From a virus (taxonomy: Duplodnaviria > Caudoviricetes): DNA of 63,661 bases. A program made the translations under genes and the position numbers. The stretch lies in IMG/VR virus record IMGVR_UViG_3300048851_000168, positions 1 to 63,661 of that record; one strand, 5' to 3'. This document shows positions 2,424 to 16,664 of the stretch, piece by piece (within the stretch, counting starts at the first letter, position 1; each line of letters opens with the position of its first letter). The notes beneath the pieces are model-generated. The model had not been told where the DNA came from, did no database searches, and worked only from the letters and a program-made list of their open reading frames with translations.

Positions 2424-3556
2424 GATGCCGCCCCCTGAGCGTCTCGCCGCAACAGCAGTTTCCGCGTGCCGTCCTGCTGCATCGGGGTGACCACGCCGTG
2501 CTGTTCCAGACCTTCCAGCAGCCGAGCTGCACGGTTGTACCCGATTTGCAGATGGCGCTGGATCAGCGATATCGATGCCCGCTGGTTCTTCACCACTATT
2601 TCCTGTGCTTCTCCGAAAAGCGGGTCATCGCCGGCCAGGTCGGGCGGTGGCGGCGGTTCGGCCTGGCGCTCACCGCCCAGAGCAGCCACCACATCGCCGA
2701 GCAACTTGGCCAACTCGCCCGTCATCAGCGCGAAGTCGGAATCGAATCGCTCGTCGTCGGTCTGGCCCAGTGCGTCGCCATTCTCTTTCAGCACGTCCAA
2801 GGCCACGATCCGCTTAATGTCCAGCGATTCAGTCAGGACGAACGACACGCGGTCTGCCCATGTCATTGCCAAGCGCGTGCAGTGCTTGCCCAACCCAATA
2901 TGCCGGCGCACGTCGTCCGCATCGATGGAATGCTTCACGTAGCGGATGGCCGCGCGGCTTTCATCGGAAGCCCGCAACTCCGTGTCCTGGTCAATGCTGA
3001 GATTTGACGGGGCCTCGTCGGCTGCCAACCATCCAGTCATGGCGGATGCGGGAGAAGTGTGGACGTACAGGCTTTCCAGCGGGAATGGATCGATGGACTT
3101 GGCCAGAATCCCCAGCACCTCGTCGGCCTTAGCCGGTGCCGCGGCGTCGATCGCCAGCCAACGGTTCACCGGGTCGATCCAGACGCGGGTATCGCGGTAG
3201 ACGCTGAACGCCTTAGGTAGAAGCTCGTCAGTGACCCTCTCCTTGATCTCCTTCATTTGCTTGCGGCCGGGCTTGTAGCCTTGCTGCTCCTCAAGTTCCT
3301 GCATTCGCGCCTTGGTCACCTGATTGATGACGCTGGCGGGCAGCAACTTCTTCTCGGCGCGCAGCGCCAGCAGCATTTGGCCGTTCACGGCATGCACCAA
3401 GCCGCCGTGCTCGCGCGGAGCTATCCATCCTAGGCTTTGCATTTCCAGCGAAGTGCCAGTCTTGAACACATGAAAGGAAAGGGCATTTTCGAGCAGCTCA
3501 GCCGATAACGACCAAGCCGCAGTGAGGCGATAAACCTTCAGGTTTTTGAACCACAT
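2420..3556 (-). CDS. rdgC: Recombination-associated protein RdgC with C-terminal FtsK gamma domain
   Basis: [27 protein letters not shown] (RdgC); [24 protein letters not shown] (FtsK gamma). Confidence 0.92.
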
Positions 3557-3568
3557 ATGAGTCCCGGT

Positions 3569-3772
3569 TTAATCGGAATATTGGGAAATGCAGCGGCACA
3601 GCCAGTCGCGGAACATCTGTTCGCGGAGCCTGCGGGATGCGTGGGGAGGGAGAGGAATCAGCGGCACCGGGGCCGGTGCGGGGCGGAAAGACCAGAACCG
3701 TCTGCGTTGCAGGCGCCGCAGTTCGGCCTTGAGGGTAATGATGTCGGCAGGCTCTTCCGCGCCGTCCGTCAT
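3569..3772 (-). CDS. Small hypothetical protein
   Basis: ATGA overlap with the upstream gene. Confidence 0.4.
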   Translation of the reverse strand: MTDGAEEPADIITLKAELRRLQRRRFWSFRPAPAPVPLIPLPPHASRRLREQMFRDWLCRCISQYSD

Positions 3773-4851
3773 ATCGGGAAGCCGTCGTGCTGGATGCCGT
3801 CCAGCAGCCGGCCGGCGGCCTTCTTGCCCACCTTGAAGATTTGCATGGCGCCAGAACCGTGCCGGCAGGCCATCGGCTCGTCAATGTTCAGCAGGGTGCC
3901 ATTGTTGTGCACTATGCCAGTAGGGACGGAGCAATCTCGCCCATAGATATCGTCCAGCACGTTTTGATCCTCGTGCGCACGTGCCTTTACCCTTGATCGG
4001 TACAGGACGCTGTGCTCCGCATCTGCCATCTGGCTAATAGGGCGCCACTCGCCCCACTGCTTGAACAGGAAGGGCACGCCGGCGGCAGCGCACTGGTCAC
4101 GAAGGCTGCGGGCCCAGTCGGGGTGCATCGGCCGCGCACCAGGGCCGCTCTCGCCGCCGACAATCACCCAGTCGATGAAGCGGGCATGCGCCCACACCAG
4201 TGCTTGGCGCTTCAAGCCACATTCCGCGCCAGCCGCTTTCGCTTCCCGATAGCTGTTGTACGGCCCCTTCCACCACCCGTGTATCGGCCACATGTAGCGA
4301 GCGACGTTCACCGGACCGAGCAACGGCTCAATGCTTAGGAAGCGCACGCGAGCTGGCGTGTCGAGCAGCTTAGGTATGTCCCGGTCTGCCTCTTCCTGGT
4401 TGACGATGGTGGCGCCAATCCAGACATGCTCCGGCGTGCCGGCCGGGAACATGTCGGCGAGCATCGCACCGGCATTGCCAATGCGCTTCGTCAGCAAAAG
4501 CCAATCCAAATTCGGCGTCATCATGATCAGGGTGGCCAAGTCCCGGCGCCAGTCGCCCACGACCTGGTTGTCGAACACGTCGGCCAAGCTGGCGCAAAAT
4601 ACGCGCTGGCGCCGGCCGTGCTGGGAGAAGAACGTAGAGTGCCCACGGTTCCACGCCAGCGGTTTACGCCAGTTGGCGGCGCTGGTGCGCCGACGCGGCG
4701 CGCCAGGACCCCAGTTGACGGCTAGACCGCCAGCGAAACGCGCATTGCGCGTCTCGGCATAGCAGTGGTCGCAGCCAGGTCCCACCTTCTGGCAGCCCTC
4801 CCAGGGATTCCACGTAGAATCACACCATTCAATATTCGTTTTATGGCTCAC
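3769..4851 (-). CDS. DUF5131 / phage Gp37-Gp68 family protein (radical-SAM-like)
   Basis: IEW..TWNPWEGC..GPGCDHCYA, LLTKR, SIEPLLG, DWVIVGGESG, PFLFKQWG. Confidence 0.92.
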   Translation of the reverse strand: MSHKTNIEWCDSTWNPWEGCQKVGPGCDHCYAETRNARFAGGLAVNWGPGAPRRRTSAANWRKPLAWNRGHSTFFSQHGRRQRVFCASLADVFDNQVVGDWRRDLATLIMMTPNLDWLLLTKRIGNAGAMLADMFPAGTPEHVWIGATIVNQEEADRDIPKLLDTPARVRFLSIEPLLGPVNVARYMWPIHGWWKGPYNSYREAKAAGAECGLKRQALVWAHARFIDWVIVGGESGPGARPMHPDWARSLRDQCAAAGVPFLFKQWGEWRPISQMADAEHSVLYRSRVKARAHEDQNVLDDIYGRDCSVPTGIVHNNGTLLNIDEPMACRHGSGAMQIFKVGKKAAGRLLDGIQHDGFPI

Positions 4852-4881
4852 GGTATTCCTATGGTGATGAAGGGCTCAACG

Positions 4882-5286
4882 ATGTCCGCGGAGAGCCGCG
4901 CCAAGATGAGTGCGGCGGCGAAAGCTCGCGGCAGCAACAGGACGGGCACCAAACATTCTGCGGAGACTCGTGCGTTGATCAGCGCGAGGACGCGAGAACG
5001 GACGCCTCGTGGCGAGCAATGCCACAGCTACATCGACGGGAAATCGCAGGAGCGCAAGGATCTGCGATCCACGCCCGAAGGTCGAAAGTGGCGTTTCGAC
5101 GTGATGAGCCGCGACGAATTTGCATGCGTGCATTGCGGGGATGATCGCGGCGGCAACCTGGAAGCCCACCATGTGCAGCCGTTTGCTGAATGCCCCGAGC
5201 GGCGGCTTGATGTGAGCAATGGAAAGACACTCTGCGTCCACTGCCACTGGATGGCGCATGCGTACGCGGGGCTCCCCGGGCTCTAA
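4882..5286 (+). CDS. HNH homing-type endonuclease with NUMOD3-like repeats (alternative start 4861)
   Basis: SAESRAKMS / HSAETRALIS; RDEFACVHC..LEAHH..NGKTLCVHCH. Confidence 0.88.
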   Translation: MSAESRAKMSAAAKARGSNRTGTKHSAETRALISARTRERTPRGEQCHSYIDGKSQERKDLRSTPEGRKWRFDVMSRDEFACVHCGDDRGGNLEAHHVQPFAECPERRLDVSNGKTLCVHCHWMAHAYAGLPGL

Positions 5287-5325
5287 CGTGTGATCAGTCC
5301 ATTCGATGCCGGAATTTTCCGCCAT
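5287..5325 (-). pseudogene. Orphaned original 5' end of the DUF5131 gene
   Basis: GGAG RBS plus MAENSGIEWTDHT, homologous to MSHKTNIEWCDST at 4851. Confidence 0.8.
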
Positions 5326-5394
5326 ACTTGCTCCGGTAGCGCAGTCGCCGGAGCATGCGGCCCGGCGGCCGCGAGGGATGAAAATTCAGATGCC

Positions 5395-5748
5395 TTAAGC
5401 GGCGATCCATACCCGCCGCGGCTTCGCCGCATCCGGGCCAGTGCCGGCCAGCCATTTGGCGCGCAGGTAGGGGCCCCCGGTATCCCAGCCTTCAATGTGG
5501 ATGTCCCTGCGGCGGTGTAGCTTGTCGACCGCTTCGCGCGTCGGCTTGCTGAACACGCCTAGCTGGCGGCGCAACTCGTCGGTCGTCATGGGTACGGCCA
5601 GCGCGGCCAGGACCCGGGCTGGCAGGCATTCTGGAACTGCCGGCCCGGCGCTGTCCACAGACTCGCCGTGGACCAGGCAGGATGATCCGGAGGTCGTCAT
5701 AAGCGACCCCTCGGGCTGGCCGGGTCCACGCCTTTGAATGTCAGGCAT
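5395..5748 (-). CDS. Hypothetical protein, possible winged helix
   Basis: PMTTDELRRQLG..REAVDKL; overlaps the upstream stop. Confidence 0.55.
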   Translation of the reverse strand: MPDIQRRGPGQPEGSLMTTSGSSCLVHGESVDSAGPAVPECLPARVLAALAVPMTTDELRRQLGVFSKPTREAVDKLHRRRDIHIEGWDTGGPYLRAKWLAGTGPDAAKPRRVWIAA

Positions 5749-6070
5749 GGTCGGCCCCTAACAGTGCAAGCGCGAGCTGTCGAGGCTCGAATCCGAAGCC
5801 CATGCACGCCATCCCCGGCAAACCATGCCGGAACGTGAGGAACGGATTCACGGAGCATGGAAGTTGTTGCCGGCGACACCATCCTCCCCGCGAATATGAG
5901 CAGTCGCAGCAGCGCTCCTGTGGCCCGGCCCATTCCCGGACAGCCCGCCCGATCACTGGACGCGCCAAGTGAACCCACGCCGCCCAGCGGGCGCGTCGCT
6001 CTGCCGGTGGGGCGTCGCCCGGTAACAGATCGCACCATGAGCTTTCCAGACAGATTTCAATGCTCGGCAT
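5741..6070 (-). CDS. Cys-rich hypothetical protein
   Basis: GGAGG RBS; CCDC..WC..PC..AC. Confidence 0.6.
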   Translation of the reverse strand: MPSIEICLESSWCDLLPGDAPPAERRARWAAWVHLARPVIGRAVREWAGPQERCCDCSYSRGGWCRRQQLPCSVNPFLTFRHGLPGMACMGFGFEPRQLALALLGADHA

Positions 6071-6455
6071 GTTTCCCTCCCAGCGCAGCGGCTGCGCGGA
6101 CGCATTGCGGCTCATGTCCGTGGCCGGCGATATCCCATCCACGAGAGCACCAGCAGCCGGGACCGCGCCACGTCGGCGTCAGATCGCGTATGGTGGACTC
6201 CAGTTCGGCGATGCGATCCGTCAGAGCGACGATTTTTGCCGGGCTGGCTAGTTCGATGAACTCCTGTACGCCCGGCGCCATCGCTACATTCGGCCATTTG
6301 TCGTAGGGGTGTACCGTACCGTGCAGCGCGCCGCCGTCGCGGGTATTCGCGCCGTCCTTGAACGTCAGGCGCCGGTACGAGTTTGACGTCCACCACTGCC
6401 AGTCCAGACCTCCCGCCGCCTGCGCCGCTCTCCTGAGCAGTTCCTTATCGTCCAT
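6057..6455 (-). CDS. Ead/Ea22-like protein
   Basis: FIELASPAKIVALTDRIAELE motif; GGAGG RBS. Confidence 0.6.
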   Translation of the reverse strand: MDDKELLRRAAQAAGGLDWQWWTSNSYRRLTFKDGANTRDGGALHGTVHPYDKWPNVAMAPGVQEFIELASPAKIVALTDRIAELESTIRDLTPTWRGPGCWCSRGWDIAGHGHEPQCVRAAAALGGKHAEH

Positions 6456-6729
6456 CGGTGCCTCCTGCGTTGCACGTTTTGCAGACCGGCATTTCAATCC
6501 GCACCTTTTGGCCGGTTTTGTCGCGGGGTTGAGCCACGGCCACGACGTCGGATAGCTCCTGCGGATACTTCCATTTGCCGCAGCGGCCGCATTCCTTCTG
6601 CCGCAGACCGGCCTTGTGCTGAACCTCGGCCCACTCGTGCCAGTCCAGATAGCCGGACGGCGGCATGTCGCCGGGCTTGAAGTCGCCCCCTACGGTCAGA
6701 ATCACGTCACCCATGATGATGTCAGGCAT
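6445..6729 (-). CDS. Zn-finger-like hypothetical protein
   Basis: CGRC..CKTC; overlap-coupled. Confidence 0.6.
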   Translation of the reverse strand: MPDIIMGDVILTVGGDFKPGDMPPSGYLDWHEWAEVQHKAGLRQKECGRCGKWKYPQELSDVVAVAQPRDKTGQKVRIEMPVCKTCNAGGTDGR

Positions 6730-7756
6730 TTCCATCCCCCTGTGCATCGGCACGCTGGGCGCGGGCGGCGTCGGCCATCGCTCTCATCTCGGCATCCGCA
6801 TGCGTCGACCAATCCTTGCCATGGCGCTGGTAGGCACGCAGCAAGAAATAGATGACGGCTGCCTGTTCTGCCTCGGCCTTTCGGGGGATGTTTTGCCCGC
6901 TGATCCTGAAGAGTTCGGCGATCCTGATGCAGGTGAAGCACATGCGGCCAAGAATCTCGCTCAGGTCATCGTTCAATTCGCCGAGCACAGACGCCTTGTC
7001 CTCCGCATCCCCCGCGCCGGGCTGCCGAGAGATGGCAGTTTCGATGGGCGGGTTCCACCGCATCCACGCCCGCTTAGTGACTTCCGCGACGTAGCCACAT
7101 GCGTCGTTTGGAGTGATATCCAGCCCACGCACGAGGGCCCATATCTCGAACGCCAGGCGGTCCTTACCTGTATCGCGTTCCGTAGCGGCCCGCTCGCCGC
7201 CCTGGATTTGAAGGGGGTGGTGTTTCACCACCCCCTTGCTTGTGCTGGCGGCAAGGGCGGCGCGGTCGAACGCGGCCACTATTTCGCGCGCGACGTAATC
7301 AGGCACGGAAACCATAGGCCAGTCCTGGCGACGCCGTAGCCATTCAACCGCCCGCTCGTCGCCCTGCGCAACTGTTAGAGAATCTCTAATAGTTGCCTCG
7401 TCGCCCTGCGCAGCCGGTGCAACGCCGTAGCGGGCGAGCAAGGCGCGGGCGAATGCGATTTCTCCGGCGTAATCGTGCTTCGTCCAGGATGTAATTGTGT
7501 CAGCCAGCGAGCCGATTTCCGCATCTGTTGGCGCGTCCTGCTGTGCACGCAACTGCTCGACTTCATCGGTCAGGATGGCATTAGCCTGGCGTTCCGAGTC
7601 AAGCAATTCGGGATTCGTCCTGGAGCGCAGCTCCAGCAACTGTTCGGATAGGTGCCTGACCTGCGCTTCCTTGGCGGTGACGATAGCCTCGAGGGCGCGG
7701 AACCGCTTGCACAGCGTAGGCAGATCGTCGCGGGAGATATCAATGCGCATCATCAT
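6722..7756 (-). CDS. Mosaic hypothetical early protein
   Basis: N-terminal coiled coil, AQGDE linker repeats. Confidence 0.65.
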   Translation of the reverse strand: MMMRIDISRDDLPTLCKRFRALEAIVTAKEAQVRHLSEQLLELRSRTNPELLDSERQANAILTDEVEQLRAQQDAPTDAEIGSLADTITSWTKHDYAGEIAFARALLARYGVAPAAQGDEATIRDSLTVAQGDERAVEWLRRRQDWPMVSVPDYVAREIVAAFDRAALAASTSKGVVKHHPLQIQGGERAATERDTGKDRLAFEIWALVRGLDITPNDACGYVAEVTKRAWMRWNPPIETAISRQPGAGDAEDKASVLGELNDDLSEILGRMCFTCIRIAELFRISGQNIPRKAEAEQAAVIYFLLRAYQRHGKDWSTHADAEMRAMADAARAQRADAQGDGNA

Positions 7757-10705: not shown

Positions 10706-13245
10706 GCTGCCTGCTCCGTCTCGAAGTCAAACATGGTCGGCATGCTCTGATCGCGCGCCGCTGCGGCGCAGTAGGCCGCTCCATCAAGGAAGTATGTGGG
10801 GGAAAGCTCGCAGCCGCGACCTTGGCGCCCTAGCCGTACGGCGCAATACGGGACCGTCATGAGGCCGCCGAAAGGGTCGTAGACGACTTCATTGGGCATG
10901 CTGTATTGCTCGATGGCGCGATCGACAATGTCCAGCGGCAGCGGGCAAAGGTGCTGCTCTTTTCCCTTGACGGCCTGTGCGGTGTTCAACGTCCGCATCC
11001 GGACGACGTCGGTGAGCACGTCGGGGTGCCACGATTGGGGCTGCAGCAGCATGAACGTGGTCGGCAGCCAGCCGGATTTGTCGACCGCCTCGGCGATCTT
11101 CACATCGTGACGGAAGTCGTAGACATTCTCTAGGCTATGCCGCTTGAACATTTGGAAGATGGCAGCCTGATCCAGACCTTCCAGCTCCTCCGGCTTCAAA
11201 TGCCGATCGCCGCCTGATCGGGCGAAGCCGTGGGCGTCGAACTGCCAGCGCGGGCGCGTGTAGTTCCGTTTGTCTTTCACCACTGGAATATCGGCGTAGC
11301 CGTTGCTGCGATCGCTTGGTGGCTTGCGAAAGACCAGCAGGTATTCCGGCATGCCGGCGCCCATACGAGAACCGTCCTTGCATTGCTCGGTCCAGCCGAG
11401 GCGGTACGTCTGGCTGTTCTCCCGGACCACGTCCGTGACAATCGTCTTCCTGGCCAGGAACGCGAAGCCGTGCTTGGTGAATGCTGCCACGCATTCGTCG
11501 CTGAAAGGCTGCACGGTCTGGAAGCCGAAACCATTGATACCGCCAGGCGTTATCCGGTCCTTTACGTGGATAGCAGCCACCCGGCCAGGCTGCAGCACGC
11601 GCAGCAGCTCAGGGATAAGAAAGTCCATCTGGCGCCAGAAATGCGCGTTGTCGTCCGTATGCCCGAAATCGTTGTAGGACGGGCTGTACTCGTACTGCGT
11701 GCTGAACGGGATGCTGGTGACCATTAGGTGAATGCTATCGGCGTCCATTCGGCGCGTCTCATCTACGCAGTCGTTGTTCACGACCACGTACCCGGGGCCG
11801 GAGGCCTCGACGCGATCCACGCCAAGGGACCTGGTCAGTTTGCTCGCCATGGCGGCGTGCGCCAGACCGAACTCTCGAATGATGCCGCTCATCTTCTCCG
11901 CCTGCTGGTTGTGCTGCGCCCACTTGCGCTCGAGCTGGCGCCGGATGTCGCGCTCGGCCTCGGTGTAGATCAGGTCGATACGCACGGAATGCTGCTGGCC
12001 GAACCGCTGGATGCGGTGAACCGCCTGAATGAAGTCCCGGAACTTGAAGCCGATGCCCAGGAAGACGGCATGGTGGCAGTGGCGCTGGAAGTTGCAGCCT
12101 GCGCCGGCAATCACCGGCTTGGCGGCCAGTTCGGGGAACTTGCCATCGCTGAAGTCGATGATGGCCTGCTCACGAACGTCCAGGTCCTGGGAGCCGTAGA
12201 CGGTTACCACGCCCGGCACGGACGCCTCGATTGCGTGCCGTTCTGCCTCCAGGTCGTGCCAGATCAGGCGGTGTGCGGGCGCTGTCTCCGCGCGGATCTC
12301 CTGCAGGATGTCGATGCGTGCCGGCAGGCTTTCGCGCTTTTCCTTCGCTGCGTCGACCACACCGATTGCTGCGCTTCGGAACAGGCGCGCTTGGCCGTCC
12401 TTCTCGTTGCCTGCGTCGGCATGGTTAGACGGAACCTCATGCCAGCGCAGGTCCAGCTCGGGCAGCCGATACCCTTCATCGCTGAATCCCAGGTCGCTGG
12501 GGCGCTGAACAAAGAGGGCCCAACTGGCAACCCATATCCAGAATTCTTCTTCCTTGTGCGGGTGCAGCGTCAGCTGGTCGGCCTTCTCGATATTGCGCTT
12601 GAAGAAGCGCGTCTTCGCCGCGGCCACGTCCATAATTCCCAGGTATGCGGAATAGGCGAGCAACTCGATGTAGTCATTGGGGGAAGGGGTAGCCGTGGCG
12701 ACGAACCGGTACCGGATTCCTTCCGTGCGCACTCCGGCTCGGCGATCGTCGCCGGCGAACAGCTTCATGAACTCTCGGAACGTCTTGCTGCCGCCGAAGC
12801 CGCGCAGCACGTCTGCCTCGTCCAGGCTGGTCGCGTCGAAGGCACGTGGATCCAGCTTGCCGTCCCGGATGGTCTCGTAGTTGGTCAGGTACACGCCGGT
12901 CGGCTCAGCCTCCTCGACCCGGCGGATGAACCGCGGGGGCTCCGACCAGCCCAGTCGCTCCACCGCATCGCGCCGGAACTCCTGGCGGACGCCCAGCGGG
13001 ATGGTGATGAGCCCACGGCCGCCGGCATGCTCGCTGGCCAAGCGCACGGCCTCCAGCTGGATGACGGTCTTGTGCAGGCCAAAACTGGCGAAGAGCGCGC
13101 GCCGGCCTCCGGCCAGCAGCCAGGGCACGATGGCGCGGCAGTGCGGTTTCATGCGCGGATTGATCGCCTCCTGGTCAACCTCAAAGCCGAGGGATGGCGC
13201 GGCCGCGACCTTTGCGCGCAAGAACTCAAGGTATGCATCGGTCAT
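10702..13245 (-). CDS. SNF2-like helicase / N4-N6 DNA methyltransferase fusion
   Basis: FGLHKT, TNYE, LDEA, TATP, QAVHRIQRFGQ (helicase); TSIPF, HLCPL, YDPFGG (beta-class MTase). Confidence 0.88.
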   Translation of the reverse strand: MTDAYLEFLRAKVAAAPSLGFEVDQEAINPRMKPHCRAIVPWLLAGGRRALFASFGLHKTVIQLEAVRLASEHAGGRGLITIPLGVRQEFRRDAVERLGWSEPPRFIRRVEEAEPTGVYLTNYETIRDGKLDPRAFDATSLDEADVLRGFGGSKTFREFMKLFAGDDRRAGVRTEGIRYRFVATATPSPNDYIELLAYSAYLGIMDVAAAKTRFFKRNIEKADQLTLHPHKEEEFWIWVASWALFVQRPSDLGFSDEGYRLPELDLRWHEVPSNHADAGNEKDGQARLFRSAAIGVVDAAKEKRESLPARIDILQEIRAETAPAHRLIWHDLEAERHAIEASVPGVVTVYGSQDLDVREQAIIDFSDGKFPELAAKPVIAGAGCNFQRHCHHAVFLGIGFKFRDFIQAVHRIQRFGQQHSVRIDLIYTEAERDIRRQLERKWAQHNQQAEKMSGIIREFGLAHAAMASKLTRSLGVDRVEASGPGYVVVNNDCVDETRRMDADSIHLMVTSIPFSTQYEYSPSYNDFGHTDDNAHFWRQMDFLIPELLRVLQPGRVAAIHVKDRITPGGINGFGFQTVQPFSDECVAAFTKHGFAFLARKTIVTDVVRENSQTYRLGWTEQCKDGSRMGAGMPEYLLVFRKPPSDRSNGYADIPVVKDKRNYTRPRWQFDAHGFARSGGDRHLKPEELEGLDQAAIFQMFKRHSLENVYDFRHDVKIAEAVDKSGWLPTTFMLLQPQSWHPDVLTDVVRMRTLNTAQAVKGKEQHLCPLPLDIVDRAIEQYSMPNEVVYDPFGGLMTVPYCAVRLGRQGRGCELSPTYFLDGAAYCAAAARDQSMPTMFDFETEQAA

Positions 13246-13308
13246 GACAATTCCTCCTGCCCCGGATAAGGCACATCCCTTCTGGGCTTCTGGTGTTTCC
13301 TGCGGCTG

Positions 13309-13338
13309 TTGCGGCTCATGTCCGCCGCGCAGTACGAT
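13309..13338 (+). promoter_or_regulatory. Putative sigma70 promoter, copy 1
   Basis: TTGCGG-N18-TACGAT upstream of the 13362 ORF. Confidence 0.55.
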
Positions 13339-13361
13339 TCCCGATCAACAGGGAGCGGAAC

Positions 13362-13595
13362 ATGCTGGAAGGAACCCATCGATCCGAGTCGGGACGAGAC
13401 ATCGAATACCAGATCGAATTCACCATCGATGGCAACAGCATCGTATGGAGCGGCCGCGCGCGCCTTCACGGCAGCGTCTGGACCGACATACCGGGCGGTG
13501 TCAACGAGATTTTCGATCCCGGATTCGTCGCGGAGGAAGTGCATGCCTTGATGCACGCGGCCATAGACGACAGGTTGCGCGGCGAGGCGGGGTAG
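13362..13595 (+). CDS. Small acidic moron protein
   Basis: GGGAG RBS, own promoter, antisense to the operon. Confidence 0.7.
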   Translation: MLEGTHRSESGRDIEYQIEFTIDGNSIVWSGRARLHGSVWTDIPGGVNEIFDPGFVAEEVHALMHAAIDDRLRGEAG

Positions 13596-13599
13596 GGTG

Positions 13600-13629
13600 T
13601 TGCGGCGCAGGGCTGGGGCGCAGTACGAT
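13600..13629 (+). promoter_or_regulatory. Putative sigma70 promoter, copy 2
   Basis: TTGCGG-N18-TACGAT with the same flanks as copy 1. Confidence 0.55.
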
Positions 13630-13659
13630 CGGCGCGAGATTCGCAACTTGGGCGAGGAC

Positions 13660-14403
13660 ATGAAAGAGAACCTACGTTGGCCGGACGTCGTTGCGATAGC
13701 CTCTGTAGCTGGGTTTGCTGCGGTATGCCTAAGAGGATGGCCTGGCCCGCTGGGCGGATTCTGGGACTCGGTGATGAAGCCCGTTCTAGATGCTGCTACC
13801 GCCGCAGGGACGGTCGGCGTTGTCATAGTGACGTATCGTTTGGCAAAGCGAGAGCGAGAGGCATCGGAGCGAAATGAGGCAACCCGCGCCGAAATGGCAT
13901 GGGCTCGCATCGCGCCGGAACTTTGGGCGCTACATAGGAACGTGGAGCATGCGGCGCTTGCCGTGCGTTCTATAGCCGACCAGCATGACGGAGACACGAT
14001 CCGCGATGGAACTCGGAGCCTGCTCCAGCAGACTAGAGCGGCATTATCCTTAGAGAATACGAGTCGATCGTTGCCTGATCTGGTTGTGCGGAGCGATGTA
14101 AGTCTCCAACTTGCAGCCATACTTGGGCAAATGCCAAAGGTTCTGCGACAGATCGATGCGCTGCTATCTATGGGCGATGTACTCCCTAACGGCGCGAACA
14201 TCAACGCATTCATTATCCTGGAAGAGTTGTGCTCCCTCGGGGAGAAGATCGATGGCGCGCTTGGAAAGGTAAAGACGAAATATTTCGATCTGGCATGGCA
14301 TGAAGCACTGGCCGTAAAGCTAGGGATTCGCAGTCCGGAAGACCATTCCATCGCAAGCGATTTCATGATGTTGGAACCCATCACTACGCCGCCTCCTGCA
14401 TAG
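13660..14403 (+). CDS. Moron membrane protein (two N-terminal hydrophobic segments plus helical domain)
   Basis: GAGG RBS; lower GC; hydrophobic N-terminus. Confidence 0.75.
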   Translation: MKENLRWPDVVAIASVAGFAAVCLRGWPGPLGGFWDSVMKPVLDAATAAGTVGVVIVTYRLAKREREASERNEATRAEMAWARIAPELWALHRNVEHAALAVRSIADQHDGDTIRDGTRSLLQQTRAALSLENTSRSLPDLVVRSDVSLQLAAILGQMPKVLRQIDALLSMGDVLPNGANINAFIILEELCSLGEKIDGALGKVKTKYFDLAWHEALAVKLGIRSPEDHSIASDFMMLEPITTPPPA

Positions 14404-14481
14404 CCGGCGCCTCGGGCTGCACGGGCGAGAGATCGATCTGATTGCTCATGATCCACGGCAGCCATACGTTGTAGCGGTCTG

Positions 14482-14766
14482 TCATCCAGGATCCTTTGGC
14501 AGCTCGTCGGTGGCATGGCCAGGACAGCCACCCTCGGGGCCGTAGTCGAATCCCGTGCAACTGGCGTAGCTGCACGGGTTGCCACATGTCGTGGACATGG
14601 GGATAACTTCGTGGCCTTTGACCAGCTCGTCCATTAGGGCATCGTCGGCTTCGTCGGCGGTCATCGTGCGGCCGTCGTCGTGCTTGAACATCCCGCGCTT
14701 CTCGCGCTTCGTCATGTTGCGCAGGGCGCCACGGACGTTTAGGCACATATACATGGTTTTGCTCAT
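14482..14766 (-). CDS. Hypothetical phage protein
   Basis: ATGA-coupled; C..FDY..GCPGH end. Confidence 0.7.
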   Translation of the reverse strand: MSKTMYMCLNVRGALRNMTKREKRGMFKHDDGRTMTADEADDALMDELVKGHEVIPMSTTCGNPCSYASCTGFDYGPEGGCPGHATDELPKDPG

Positions 14767-16664
14767 GCTGCAATCCTTCGCTGCTTGGCTTCTTTGGGCG
14801 TCCACGTGGCCAATTCCGGCACGTTGGCCCGCACCAGCGCCGCGGCGAGCGGCGGGCATACGCTGTTGCCGCACATGCGCACCTGGGCATGCTTCGGCAA
14901 GCGGCGTCCATTGACGGTGGGGGCGATCACGTAGGTCGCCGGGAATCCCTGGGCGGCATACAGTTCGTGCGGCTCGAGCATCCGCATGCCGATATCAGCG
15001 ATGACGTACTCCTGTCCGGACACCGTCACCAGCCCGAGCCGGTCCTTCGTGGGAATGGTGTGCATCGGGTCCCGGCAATCCTGGTCCTGGCCGCCTTCGC
15101 CGTAGTACTTCACCAAGAAGGTCCGGACGTCGGCTACGTGGCCACCACCGGCGGTGAGCGTTGGCATCGGCTCGTCGGTCGCTTGGCCGAACTGGTTATT
15201 GCGCGGCTTTGCCAAGCGGGACGTGACAATGCAGGTATCAGCCTTGGCGGTCAACGTCTGCGCCGGCTCGCCGGCATCGCGAGGACGGCTTTGTCCAGCG
15301 CGGCCGCCGCAGCCCACCAGTTGCGCCGCAACCAGCGCATGGTGGTCAACCGTCGTTGCGGTATGGGCAGGGCCGTCCAGCGGGGCGCCGGGCCCGTCAT
15401 AGTTGCCGCCGTAGTGCTTCGCCAGAAAGGCCGAAACGAGTGCGTGCTTCACGCCGCCCGCCACGGCGGTACCAAGCGGCTTATCGAGGCCTGGAGCCCG
15501 CGGCGCTTGGCCCGGAGCCTCACCGTAGCCGGTCTGGACGAGCGTCGGCGCGACCATGGCGAAGTGGCCGCCCTTGACCTCGGCACACTGGGTACGCAGG
15601 GGCGCATCGGCGTCGAAGTTTCGCTGCGTCGACCCGTTGGCGTGCTCGGTCAGGAATGGCGCCACCACGGCATATGCGCTGTTCGCCGTCACGGTTTGGA
15701 AAGGCGCGTCGATATCGCGCGCGCCGGGGCCCCAACGCTGCGCCTTCCCAGGCTGACCTTCGCCGTGCGACAAGGTGACCACAAAGGGCTTCGCCGCCTC
15801 GACCACGTACCGCCGAATGCCACGCGCGATGCGCTTCAGCGTGGCTTCGGCGAGCGGCCGCGTACGCTCGAAGATGGACGGGCAGGGGATGGTCCAGTCA
15901 ATGCAATCCGCCGCGGTACGCCACGGCTTAAGCGTACCGACCAAGACGCCGGACGACGTCGGTACCCCGTGCGTCGGTTCCGGCCAGACGATCGGCTGCC
16001 CATCGCATCGACCGACGCCGAAAAGCCGCTTTCGAATTGTCGGAACGCCGTAATCGCATGCGCGGAGCTCCCGGTGTTCGAAGGTGTATTGCAAACCCTT
16101 GATCAGCCGCTGGCGCTGAGCTTCGGTAAGTTCCAGGACCTCAGTTGCCTCAACGAGAGCCGGGCTGTCCGGGTCGACGCCCGTGGTCAGCATTGCGACG
16201 AACGCATTAAACGTCTCGCCGCGGCGATCCTTGCAGGGCAACATGGCCTCCGTCAGAGGTCCCCATGTTCTGAACTCTTCGACGTTCTCCAAGATGAAAA
16301 CGCGCGGACGTGCTGTAAGCAGCCAGCGGATAATGATCCAGGCAAGGCCGCGTATCTTTTTGCTGACCGGTTTCCCGCCTTTCGCTTTGCTGAAATGCTT
16401 GCAGTCGGGTGAGAACCACGCCAGCCCCACCGGGCGCCCCTGCGTCGCCTGCATTGGATCTACATCCCACACGGACTCGCAGAAGTGCTGCGTTTGGGGA
16501 TGATTCATCTCGTGCATCGCCACGGCTTCAGGGTCGTGATTGATCGCGATGTCGACGCAGCGGCCCAGGGCCATTTCGATGCCGGTCGATGCGCCGCCAC
16601 CGCCCGCAAAGTTATCTACGATGATTTCGTGATGGACGTCTAGGAGGAACTGATCACGGATCAT
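14763..16664 (-). CDS. C5 DNA cytosine methyltransferase
   Basis: DNFAGGGG, SPDC, ENV, RKRLF, GNSV. Confidence 0.93.
   Translation of the reverse strand: MIRDQFLLDVHHEIIVDNFAGGGGASTGIEMALGRCVDIAINHDPEAVAMHEMNHPQTQHFCESVWDVDPMQATQGRPVGLAWFSPDCKHFSKAKGGKPVSKKIRGLAWIIIRWLLTARPRVFILENVEEFRTWGPLTEAMLPCKDRRGETFNAFVAMLTTGVDPDSPALVEATEVLELTEAQRQRLIKGLQYTFEHRELRACDYGVPTIRKRLFGVGRCDGQPIVWPEPTHGVPTSSGVLVGTLKPWRTAADCIDWTIPCPSIFERTRPLAEATLKRIARGIRRYVVEAAKPFVVTLSHGEGQPGKAQRWGPGARDIDAPFQTVTANSAYAVVAPFLTEHANGSTQRNFDADAPLRTQCAEVKGGHFAMVAPTLVQTGYGEAPGQAPRAPGLDKPLGTAVAGGVKHALVSAFLAKHYGGNYDGPGAPLDGPAHTATTVDHHALVAAQLVGCGGRAGQSRPRDAGEPAQTLTAKADTCIVTSRLAKPRNNQFGQATDEPMPTLTAGGGHVADVRTFLVKYYGEGGQDQDCRDPMHTIPTKDRLGLVTVSGQEYVIADIGMRMLEPHELYAAQGFPATYVIAPTVNGRRLPKHAQVRMCGNSVCPPLAAALVRANVPELATWTPKEAKQRRIAA

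Follow-up and report, generated by a model that had tools for sequence, protein, structure and literature searches.

A minus-strand open reading frame spans an antisense cargo cassette in a prophage early operon and may act as a translated spacer

The locus and its coding strands

The 63.7-kb provirus record IMGVR_UViG_3300048851_000168, analyzed at its full length and called the window below, contains a long minus-strand open reading frame (ORF) that runs antisense across two plus-strand genes inside an operon of early genes. We refer to this ORF as the bridge and to the two plus-strand genes as cargo. Genes from approximately 1 to 25.7 kb of the window lie on the minus strand, many of them with 4-nt overlaps. 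Around the insert, the minus-strand order is a C5-cytosine methyltransferase gene, a gene for a 94-aa protein, a 33-codon ORF, the bridge, and a gene for a helicase-methyltransferase fusion (Table 1). ATGA overlaps at 14485/14482, 13245/13242, and 10705/10702 place minus-strand genes at operon spacing on both sides of the insert, so that antisense genes sit between co-oriented genes, the layout of a noncontiguous operon. The 94-aa gene has four relatives in the comparison set (L001 to L004), and its neighbors are different in all four.

The bridge is arranged like a coupled cistron. Its start lies 2 nt behind the stop of the 33-codon ORF (TAG-TG-ATG), and its TGA overlaps the helicase-methyltransferase start codon (13245-13243) in an ATGA. 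The GGAGGA at 13257-13252, within the 25-codon tail of the bridge, is the Shine-Dalgarno sequence of the helicase-methyltransferase gene. A first-pass annotation made from the sequence had reported the coordinates of the ORF, its GGAGG and TAG-TG-ATG start, its 379 open codons, and its TGA/ATG overlap, and direct reading agrees with it on every point. The same frame is open further upstream, giving a minus-strand ORF of 447 codons from a GTG (13242..14585).

Table 1. Features of the window, with positions counted from its first nucleotide.
Feature	Positions	Strand	Details
Bridge ORF	13242..14381	-	ATG 14381-14379, 379 sense codons, TGA 13244-13242
GGAGG, Shine-Dalgarno-like	14392..14396	-	10 nt before the bridge ATG; within the 13-nt right-end motif GGAGGCGGCGTAG
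33-codon ORF	14384..14485	-	ATG overlaps the upstream gene's stop (ATGA); TAG 14386-14384; GC content at third codon positions (GC3) 0.85
94-aa early-operon gene	14482..14766	-	PHROG 21034 (E 1.6e-18)
C5-cytosine methyltransferase	14763..16664	-	
Helicase-N6/N4 methyltransferase fusion, 847 aa	10702..13245	-	PHROG 16 (E 2e-110); Pfam N6_N4_Mtase (E 9e-13)
Left-end tail of the bridge	13245..13319	-	25 codons from an internal ATG; holds GGAGGA 13257-13252
Cargo gene 1, 77 aa	13362..13595	+	Relative in L120
Cargo gene 2, 247 aa	13660..14403	+	Two N-terminal hydrophobic helices and a helical bundle; homologs and fold
Repeated element, copy 1	13308..13338	+	GTTGCGGC-N13-GCAGTACGAT; 24 nt before cargo gene 1
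Repeated element, copy 2	13599..13629	+	31 nt before cargo gene 2
Second bridge-like ORF	4876..5325	-	149 codons, codon-aligned; between two early-operon genes
HNH + NUMOD3 endonuclease gene	4882..5286	+	Antisense; Pfam HNH (E 6.5e-7), NUMOD3 (E 3.7e-5); PHROG HNH families
O-acetyltransferase/O-antigen acetylase-like gene, 436 aa	58475..59785	-	PHROG 3333 (E 1e-26); antisense among plus-strand late-region genes

Homology, predicted fold, and gene calling all support the plus strand, and none of them supports the minus frame; the plus-strand genes are therefore real, and the bridge is not a conventional gene. Among 1.84 billion representatives, 17 homologs of the 247-aa protein were found at an E value of ≤1e-3, eight of them at ≤1e-10. 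The best is 49% identical (E 9.4e-52), and family members share the N-terminal hydrophobic helices and several motifs at identities down to 25%. Its AlphaFold2 model, built with the family alignment, is all-helical with a mean predicted local distance difference test (pLDDT) score of 87.1 and a predicted template modeling score of 0.69. A Foldseek comparison with the PDB gave no match at E ≤ 0.001, returning only generic helical bundles. The source's own gene call, of 209 aa, also sits on this strand. Differences from the homolog in another provirus, L086, fall at codon positions 1/2/3 in the numbers 84/62/139. The 77-aa protein has a relative of 71% identity in a 1-kb metagenome contig (L120), with differences of 13/9/22. 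Neither cargo protein matches Pfam, PHROG, or PADLOC. For the bridge product, no homolog was found among 5655 scored candidates and no family in Pfam or PHROG; its AlphaFold2 model has a pLDDT of 29.5, a weak test given the two-row alignment used.

The two cargo genes are crossed in different registers. Over the 744-bp gene, the third positions of both strands coincide, and over the small gene the frames are codon-aligned (position 1 opposite position 3). The proposal that the bridge is out of register with the sense codons thus applies to the larger gene and not to the smaller one. GC fractions by codon position are.645/.46/.573 for the 744-bp gene and.45/.65/.60, an atypical pattern, for the minus frame; for the small gene, the patterns of the two strands are mirror images. 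The 247-aa gene extends 20 nt beyond the bridge ATG and overlaps the 3'-terminal part of the 33-codon ORF (14384..14403). It ends in the residues TTPPPA, which come from the right-end motif read in reverse, and the L086 homolog ends 38 nt earlier relative to that motif.

Cassette ends and spanning frames at other loci

The insert is absent from all 80 related helicase-methyltransferase loci. The C5-methyltransferase gene abuts the helicase gene in L018, L076, L073, L061, and L039. In L005 and L006, which are insert-free, an upstream same-strand ORF already stops on the helicase start, so that coupling at this start is the ancestral state. L005 also carries, upstream of its helicase-methyltransferase gene, a reverse-transcriptase-like 449-aa ORF with a YVDD motif (3452..4801, +) and a 153-aa ORF, an insert that, judging by the translation, looks like a retron or a diversity-generating retroelement.

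The same type of cassette occurs in the IMG/VR provirus L086, between flanking genes unrelated to those of the window. DNA homology between the two starts at ATGnnGGAGGCGGCGTAG, comprising the upstream gene's last codons and stop, and extends as far as the GGAGGA in front of the downstream gene. The large L086 gene is approximately 48 to 49% identical to the 247-aa protein (48% over 207 aligned codons), and the small gene in the equivalent position has no homology to the window's 77-aa gene. Here, too, a bridge is open, over 367 codons, with its ATG 2 nt after a TAG and its TGA 2 nt before the next start, a GTG.

Both ends of the cassette recur with other cargo. The right-end motif is common to the window, L086, and L109 with its metagenome twin L126; in the window, it includes the final codons and the TAG of the 33-codon ORF. 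The left-end tail is identical between window and L086 at 18 of 25 residues and is also present in L108, L109/L126, L110, and L111. These ends precede a small methyltransferase gene (L086), C5-methyltransferase genes (L108 and L110), another gene (L109/L126), and another bridge (L111). The element of approximately 31 nt that stands before each cargo gene of the window precedes different cargo in L086, L108, L109/L126, L110, and L120, often nearly identical over 40 nt. From its sequence, it would be promoter-like (TTGCGG-18-TACGAT); a consensus scan called 0 promoters and 0 terminators and did not call the element. Possible roles are a common promoter/operator or a linker for recombination that swaps cargo. 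The element flanks the variable small gene on both sides.

Close relatives lack the insert, and its ends recur at different positions in other loci, which makes it a mobile cassette. The first-pass annotation had spoken of two moron genes: both do look like real genes, but as parts of a modular cassette whose ends are conserved. The last 25 codons of the bridge were also considered as a separate conserved micro-gene, a candidate we set aside; the conserved blocks coincide with the repeated element and the Shine-Dalgarno sequence, and the counts are too small to decide. Searches for relatives of the insert gave little elsewhere. A DNA search of a phage database matched only the flanks, and tblastn against it gave nothing; a word-indexed search of proteins recovered nothing beyond the 209-aa call of the window itself, and a profile search of genome and metagenome contigs found none. 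A 20-nt motif scan of genome contigs gave 14 matches in unrelated taxa, none encoding the 247-aa family, which we took as chance. Among 15 metagenome matches to an 18-base motif, only L120 and L126 are related.

In seven further prophage loci, different antisense cargo is crossed by one operon-sense ORF running from an upstream stop to the next start. L109/L126, L110, L108, and L111 were found by scanning for the repeated element and not through their ORFs. In L109 and L126, the two conserved ends enclose a different cargo protein, of 123 aa, and a 168-codon bridge, with junctions as in L086 (TAG-CC-ATG and TGA-2 nt-start). L110 combines the left end with an 82-aa cargo protein and a 123-codon bridge bounded by ATGA at both junctions, and L108 holds the small gene of L086. 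In L111, two tandem cassettes (oriented 4088..7100; original 4625..7637) are crossed by two coupled operon-sense ORFs, the cargo proteins being an HNH_2 nuclease, one 247-aa-family member, and two others of 100 and 234 aa. The first L111 bridge has 644 codons over three plus-strand genes, one of them in the 247-aa family; it starts 1 nt after the upstream stop (TGA-A-ATG) and ends in the conserved tail. Its frame is stop-free from 7266 to 5166 (oriented), at 58% GC, whereas the other two frames hold 19 and 23 stops. The second has 359 codons from a TTG that overlaps the first bridge's stop (TTGA), with an ATG one codon on (TGATG); it crosses the gene matching Pfam HNH_2 (E 2e-12) and ends on the start of an N6-methyltransferase gene.

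L105 and L107 were fetched by protein similarity to the 247-aa family only. In L107, a 282-codon ORF is joined by ATGA overlaps to a C5-methyltransferase gene on one side and an AlpA gene on the other, and the 247-aa-family gene lies wholly inside it; L105 has a similar ORF of 283 codons, with ATGA at both ends. L063, L078, and L074 were candidates from a rough survey, verified by PHROG checks. In L063, a 281-codon ORF with ATGA overlaps links the helicase-methyltransferase gene to the next gene across an antisense HicB gene (PHROG 497, E 3e-25) and its partner; L078 is alike, with a 331-codon ORF, and L074 is a looser case, over a CI-like repressor. The HicB-like antitoxin genes (L063 4819..5598, -; L078 5927..6682, -) each have an 85- to 87-aa partner and lie antisense directly after the helicase-methyltransferase gene. 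Tight starts and stops at both ends are seen in the window, L086, L109/L126, L110, both bridges of L111, L105, L107, and L063.

The window itself holds a second bridge-like ORF, over the HNH + NUMOD3 gene, whose start may instead be 4861 or 4843. This ORF has no Pfam or PHROG family. It begins MAENSGIEWTDHT, resembling the N terminus MSHKTNIEWCDST of the DUF5131 gene downstream (3769..4851, -; Pfam E 6e-90). The endonuclease gene may have landed in the 5' end of the DUF5131 gene, with duplication of the start.

Openness of the frame and its interpretation

Over 13245..14381, the two sister minus frames contain 11 and 12 stops. When synonymous codons were permuted within both cargo genes, the bridge stayed open in 192 of 5000 trials (3.8%), with a mean of approximately two stops, and when codons were redrawn from phage-wide usage it was open in 9.0%. 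With the two noncoding spacers shuffled as well, the figure drops to 0.535% of 20000 trials. The null is calibrated: in the third-position register, 51 gene-like ORFs of the window contain 328 stops against 316 expected under permutation. A stop in this register requires a pyrimidine-ending codon before tyrosine or a T-ending codon before histidine or glutamine. None of the 51 ORFs is stop-free there, compared with 9 in the codon-aligned register. Composition thus fails to predict the openness of the whole cassette and is less clearly exceeded for its coding parts. The synonymous shuffle that the first-pass annotation had suggested as a check therefore leaves the open frame of the window, taken alone, as moderately unusual. 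Since these odds are modest and the window was picked for this ORF, it would not carry the claim by itself. Two codon-aligned shadow ORFs adjoin the locus, one of 513 codons (11728..13269, +) opposite the helicase-methyltransferase gene and one of 507 codons (14889..16412, +) opposite the C5-methyltransferase gene. Both are ordinary shadows and illustrate the ease with which the codon-aligned register remains open here.

The related loci, and not the window alone, support selection on openness. The codon test left the window out and covered nine cargo genes (1595 codons) crossed in the codon-aligned register, where a bridge stop appears as TTA, CTA, or TCA in the cargo gene. None of 214 leucine and serine sites has such a codon. 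In 28 high-GC3 background genes of these loci, such codons number 70 among 8671, a rate that predicts 12.9 (P 2.6e-6); scaling to each gene's own use of A-ending codons elsewhere, calibrated on the background, predicts 32. The other register is one in which these codons do not matter, and the two cargo genes crossed in it carry them at 11 of 75 sites (Fisher 2e-7 against 0/214). The counted cassettes all have a bridge, so that this result shows frames too clean for chance, not that all antisense cargo is bridged. Seven of nine cargo genes from six cassettes are crossed in the cheapest register, two in the middle one, and none in the costliest.

The pair L105/L107 separates openness from product. 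Their cargo proteins are 76% identical, with differences of 38/31/135 by codon position, whereas the bridge products are 39% identical, with differences of 154/52/56, and both frames are open. The 135 cargo wobble changes hit the first position of bridge codons, yet neither locus has gained a stop. Purifying selection on the amino acids of the bridge product is not seen in this pair; in the window/L086 pair, the two frames share the wobble position and such a comparison is uninformative. Within the 247-aa family, the crossing register is third-position in the window and L086 and codon-aligned in L105, L107, and L111, which argues for repeated solutions rather than inheritance.

We consider it probable that the bridge is a spacer cistron in which selection for translation across the cassette maintains an open frame. 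A 1.14-kb cargo cassette, with two plus-strand genes each behind a copy of the repeated element, would have been inserted backwards into a tightly coupled minus-strand early operon. The spacer cistron would start behind its GGAGG, 2 nt after the stop of the preceding operon gene, cross the whole cassette, supply the GGAGGA, and stop on the helicase-methyltransferase start codon. Openness and translation of the frame would matter, and the encoded product would not. We infer that the frame is translated from the frame-specific absence of stops, the tight junctions with Shine-Dalgarno-like sequences, and the lack of product constraint. Rho terminates untranslated RNA that is C-rich and G-poor and suppresses antisense transcripts, and overlapping stop-start pairs promote reinitiation. 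Bridge transcripts are C-rich, with C/G ratios of 1.10 to 1.30 in all nine bridges and 1.24 in the window (plus-strand GC skew up to +0.23). A gene read backwards yields just such an untranslated, C-rich, G-poor RNA, which is why translation across it would matter. Ribosomes would follow RNA polymerase over an antisense stretch otherwise left untranslated and be delivered to the next start codon. The benefit would be protection from Rho-dependent polarity, translational coupling, or both. The first-pass idea that selection keeps ribosomes on the transcript across the insert is thereby supported in part, as far as selected openness goes, through the recurrent coupled ORFs, the stop-codon avoidance, and the free divergence of the product.

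A broader proposal, to which we give some credence but less than an even chance, is that operons tolerate an internal antisense gene only where ribosomes can traverse it on an operon-sense ORF. The conserved ends would then be portable adapters that make cargo translation-transparent: one end would provide the upstream gene's last codons and stop, GGAGG, and ATG, and the other a peptide tail, GGAGGA, and a stop. The codon choice of the cargo would be policed in the bridge frame, and the scope would be phages of hosts that couple transcription and translation. If so, some long ORFs would form a class under selection solely for their translation, and defense or lysogeny cargo would come with its insulator built in.

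Several observations weigh against selection for a translated spacer. In the window, the evidence is modest and ascertained, as described above, and 41% of shuffles leave the L086 frame open; GC-rich DNA in any case often keeps codon-aligned antisense frames free of stops. Downstream genes, with a GGAGGA of their own, may not need coupling, and antitermination by the phage could make Rho irrelevant. The loci include related pairs (window/L086, L105/L107, and L063/L078), and for L109/L126, L110, two L111 genes, and the small L086 gene the coding strand is assigned by composition and the upstream element only. HicA, HicB, and the window HNH gene each have only about one expected stop. At least 6 of the 17 homologs of the 247-aa protein contain dipeptides that force a stop in the register of the window. 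Among loci homologous at the 247-aa gene, the frame is open in L086, L105, L107, and L111, and it has stops in L102, L103, L104, and L106 (2, 4, 2, and 6 in the best frame, respectively). In these four, shorter operon-sense ORFs tile the antisense gene, an excess over chance is not established, and they are counted as unbridged. A CI-like repressor gene in L068 and a PHROG 13321 gene in L071 (6 stops each) and the O-acetyltransferase gene of the window (12 stops in the best opposite frame) bring the verified antisense genes not spanned by one ORF to seven. Some of the unbridged genes may sit at operon ends.

Of the 17 antisense-embedded cargo sets that were verified, 10 have a single spanning ORF, or 7 of 14 with related pairs counted once, compared with 3 of 28 window genes of at least 200 codons that have any fully open antisense frame. 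Bridging of antisense cargo is thus no rule. PHROG checks gave no match on either strand for pairs at L068 (4549-4878), L069, L071 (5945-6424), L075, and L082. A crude GC3-based gene caller, run on 95 loci and the window, found embedded genes of at least 120 codons open in 13 of 27 cases against 95 of 570 elsewhere; this survey was rejected as evidence because several of its embedded antisense genes are shadows of real operon genes (L025, L031, and L067), which inflates the count.

Chance is the simplest alternative, though in our view an unlikely one. The bridge would be a shadow ORF of GC-rich DNA, a tyrosine-poor plus-strand protein, and rare TTA, CTA, and TCA codons, with junctions that look coupled because the cassette ends abut ATGA-type starts. 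The coding-part and L086 shuffles, the nine open codon-aligned frames of the window, and the adjoining shadows fit this account, as do the seven unbridged genes, the 0 to 8 tyrosines per protein of the 247-aa family, and an ATGA at the helicase start that is older than the insert. It accounts poorly for a frame that is open in 0.5% of trials once spacers are included, for the 644- and 359-codon L111 frames at 58% GC beside sister frames full of stops, for stop-making codons at 0/214 sites against 11/75 in the harmless register, for the lack of any cargo gene in the costliest register, and for tight starts and stops at both ends across many loci.

A functional 379-aa product would make the bridge a true antisense overlapping gene, as proposed for gene 10/olg1 in Pseudomonas phage Fc02; we rate this as improbable. 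The GGAGG start, the operon position, and the conserved tail (18/25) are what such a gene would have, and the Fc02 antisense pairs are reported, in the available portion of the source, to be expressed in lysogeny and lysis (PMC9936078). The tail, however, is explained by the coinciding repeated element and the next gene's Shine-Dalgarno sequence. With no homolog or family, a pLDDT of 29.5 (two-row alignment only), and stops that at least 6 of 17 plus-strand homologs must have in this register, the first-pass suggestion of a real overlapping gene finds no support in its conserved-function form. The minus-frame GC profile (.45/.65/.60), the mutually unrelated bridges over different cargo, and the concentration of L105/L107 bridge changes on the first codon position point the same way. 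Least probable by far is that the minus ORF is the sole real gene and the two plus-strand ORFs its shadows. The minus ORF is the longer one and fits operon spacing, and the mirror-image GC patterns over the small gene would agree with it. Against this stand the 17 homologs with conserved motifs down to 25% identity and the confident fold (pLDDT 87.1), the excess of L086 differences at the shared wobble (139 versus 84 and 62), and identity to L086 that is higher for the plus-strand protein (48% over 207 codons) than for the minus frame (40% over 194 residues). The L105/L107 signal (38/31/135) is unambiguous for the plus strand, and HNH_2, HNH + NUMOD3, and HicB domains lie on the cargo strand in other cassettes.

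Relation to known systems

Overlapping antisense genes offer one precedent. In the beetrevirus Fc02 of Pseudomonas, the lytic-operon gene 10 fully overlaps olg1 and olg2, which are expressed in lysogeny from the other strand; both products are reported to have exclusion activity, which the authors, in the part of the article available, read as iso-functional overlapping genes (PMC9936078). The likeness is an operon-sense ORF opposite cargo genes. Going by that part of the article, the difference is that operon-sense products of the type seen in the window show no relationship from one cassette to another and no constraint on their sequence. For Pseudomonas aeruginosa and Escherichia coli, long antisense ORFs of GC-rich DNA are claimed to be translated and argued to be under purifying selection as proteins, according to the sections available of two reports (PMC8850804, PMC9927249). 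Compared with what those sections describe, the signal here concerns openness alone, and it is the operon junctions that define the ORFs.

Ordinary GC-rich shadow ORFs share with the bridges the codon-aligned register and the rarity of TTA, CTA, and TCA (seven of nine cargo genes, as well as the nearby 513- and 507-codon ORFs). They differ in that the bridge passes over the large gene of the window in the third-position register, where none of the 51 window ORFs lacks stops, and in that bridges run through several genes and spacers and end on their neighbors' starts. Morons are autonomous cargo genes in prophages. The cargo of the window resembles them in being absent from relatives (0/80), in its lower GC3, and in having its own upstream element before each gene. 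Unlike morons, it lies antisense inside an operon and not between transcription units, with 0 terminator-like sites in the consensus scan, and the conserved ends of its cassette bear translation signals for the opposite strand.

Keyword searches of the open-access literature returned no description of an operon-sense ORF held open across antisense cargo with coupled junctions and an unconstrained product, nor of cassette ends that supply translation signals for the opposite strand, which is not proof of absence. If the spacer reading is correct, being translated can by itself be reason enough to maintain a long ORF, which bears on how annotators treat shadow ORFs. An open frame with ribosome footprints then need not mean a functional protein, and this would affect tests of antisense overlapping genes. 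Another matter it touches is how operon transcripts survive when a long part of them lies opposite an antisense gene. Given conserved ends around varied cargo, such as an HNH nuclease and membrane proteins, prophages may swap lysogeny or defense genes within essential early operons that stay unbroken.

The closest layout is that of noncontiguous operons, in which an antisense gene with its own promoter is nested in an operon; the available portion of the source describes them in Staphylococcus aureus and its phages, including prophage examples that switch between lysogeny and lysis (PMC11087260). An S. aureus atlas, in the part available, raises the puzzle of transcription that persists across an untranslated stretch, and answers it with uncoupled, runaway transcription in Gram-positive bacteria (PMC11034616). 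As judged from its sequence, the operon transcript of the window must likewise cross an opposite-strand gene with its own upstream element. In the S. aureus case, the crossing stretch is treated as untranslated in those portions of the sources, whereas the window has a single open, junction-coupled ORF. The hosts differ as well: those noncontiguous operons belong to S. aureus, a Gram-positive host, and the window phage has database relatives that infect Pseudomonas, Ralstonia, and Burkholderia. Where transcription-translation coupling holds, a spanning ORF would be the matching answer to the same puzzle, and the loci described here make the question directly testable in a Gram-negative setting.

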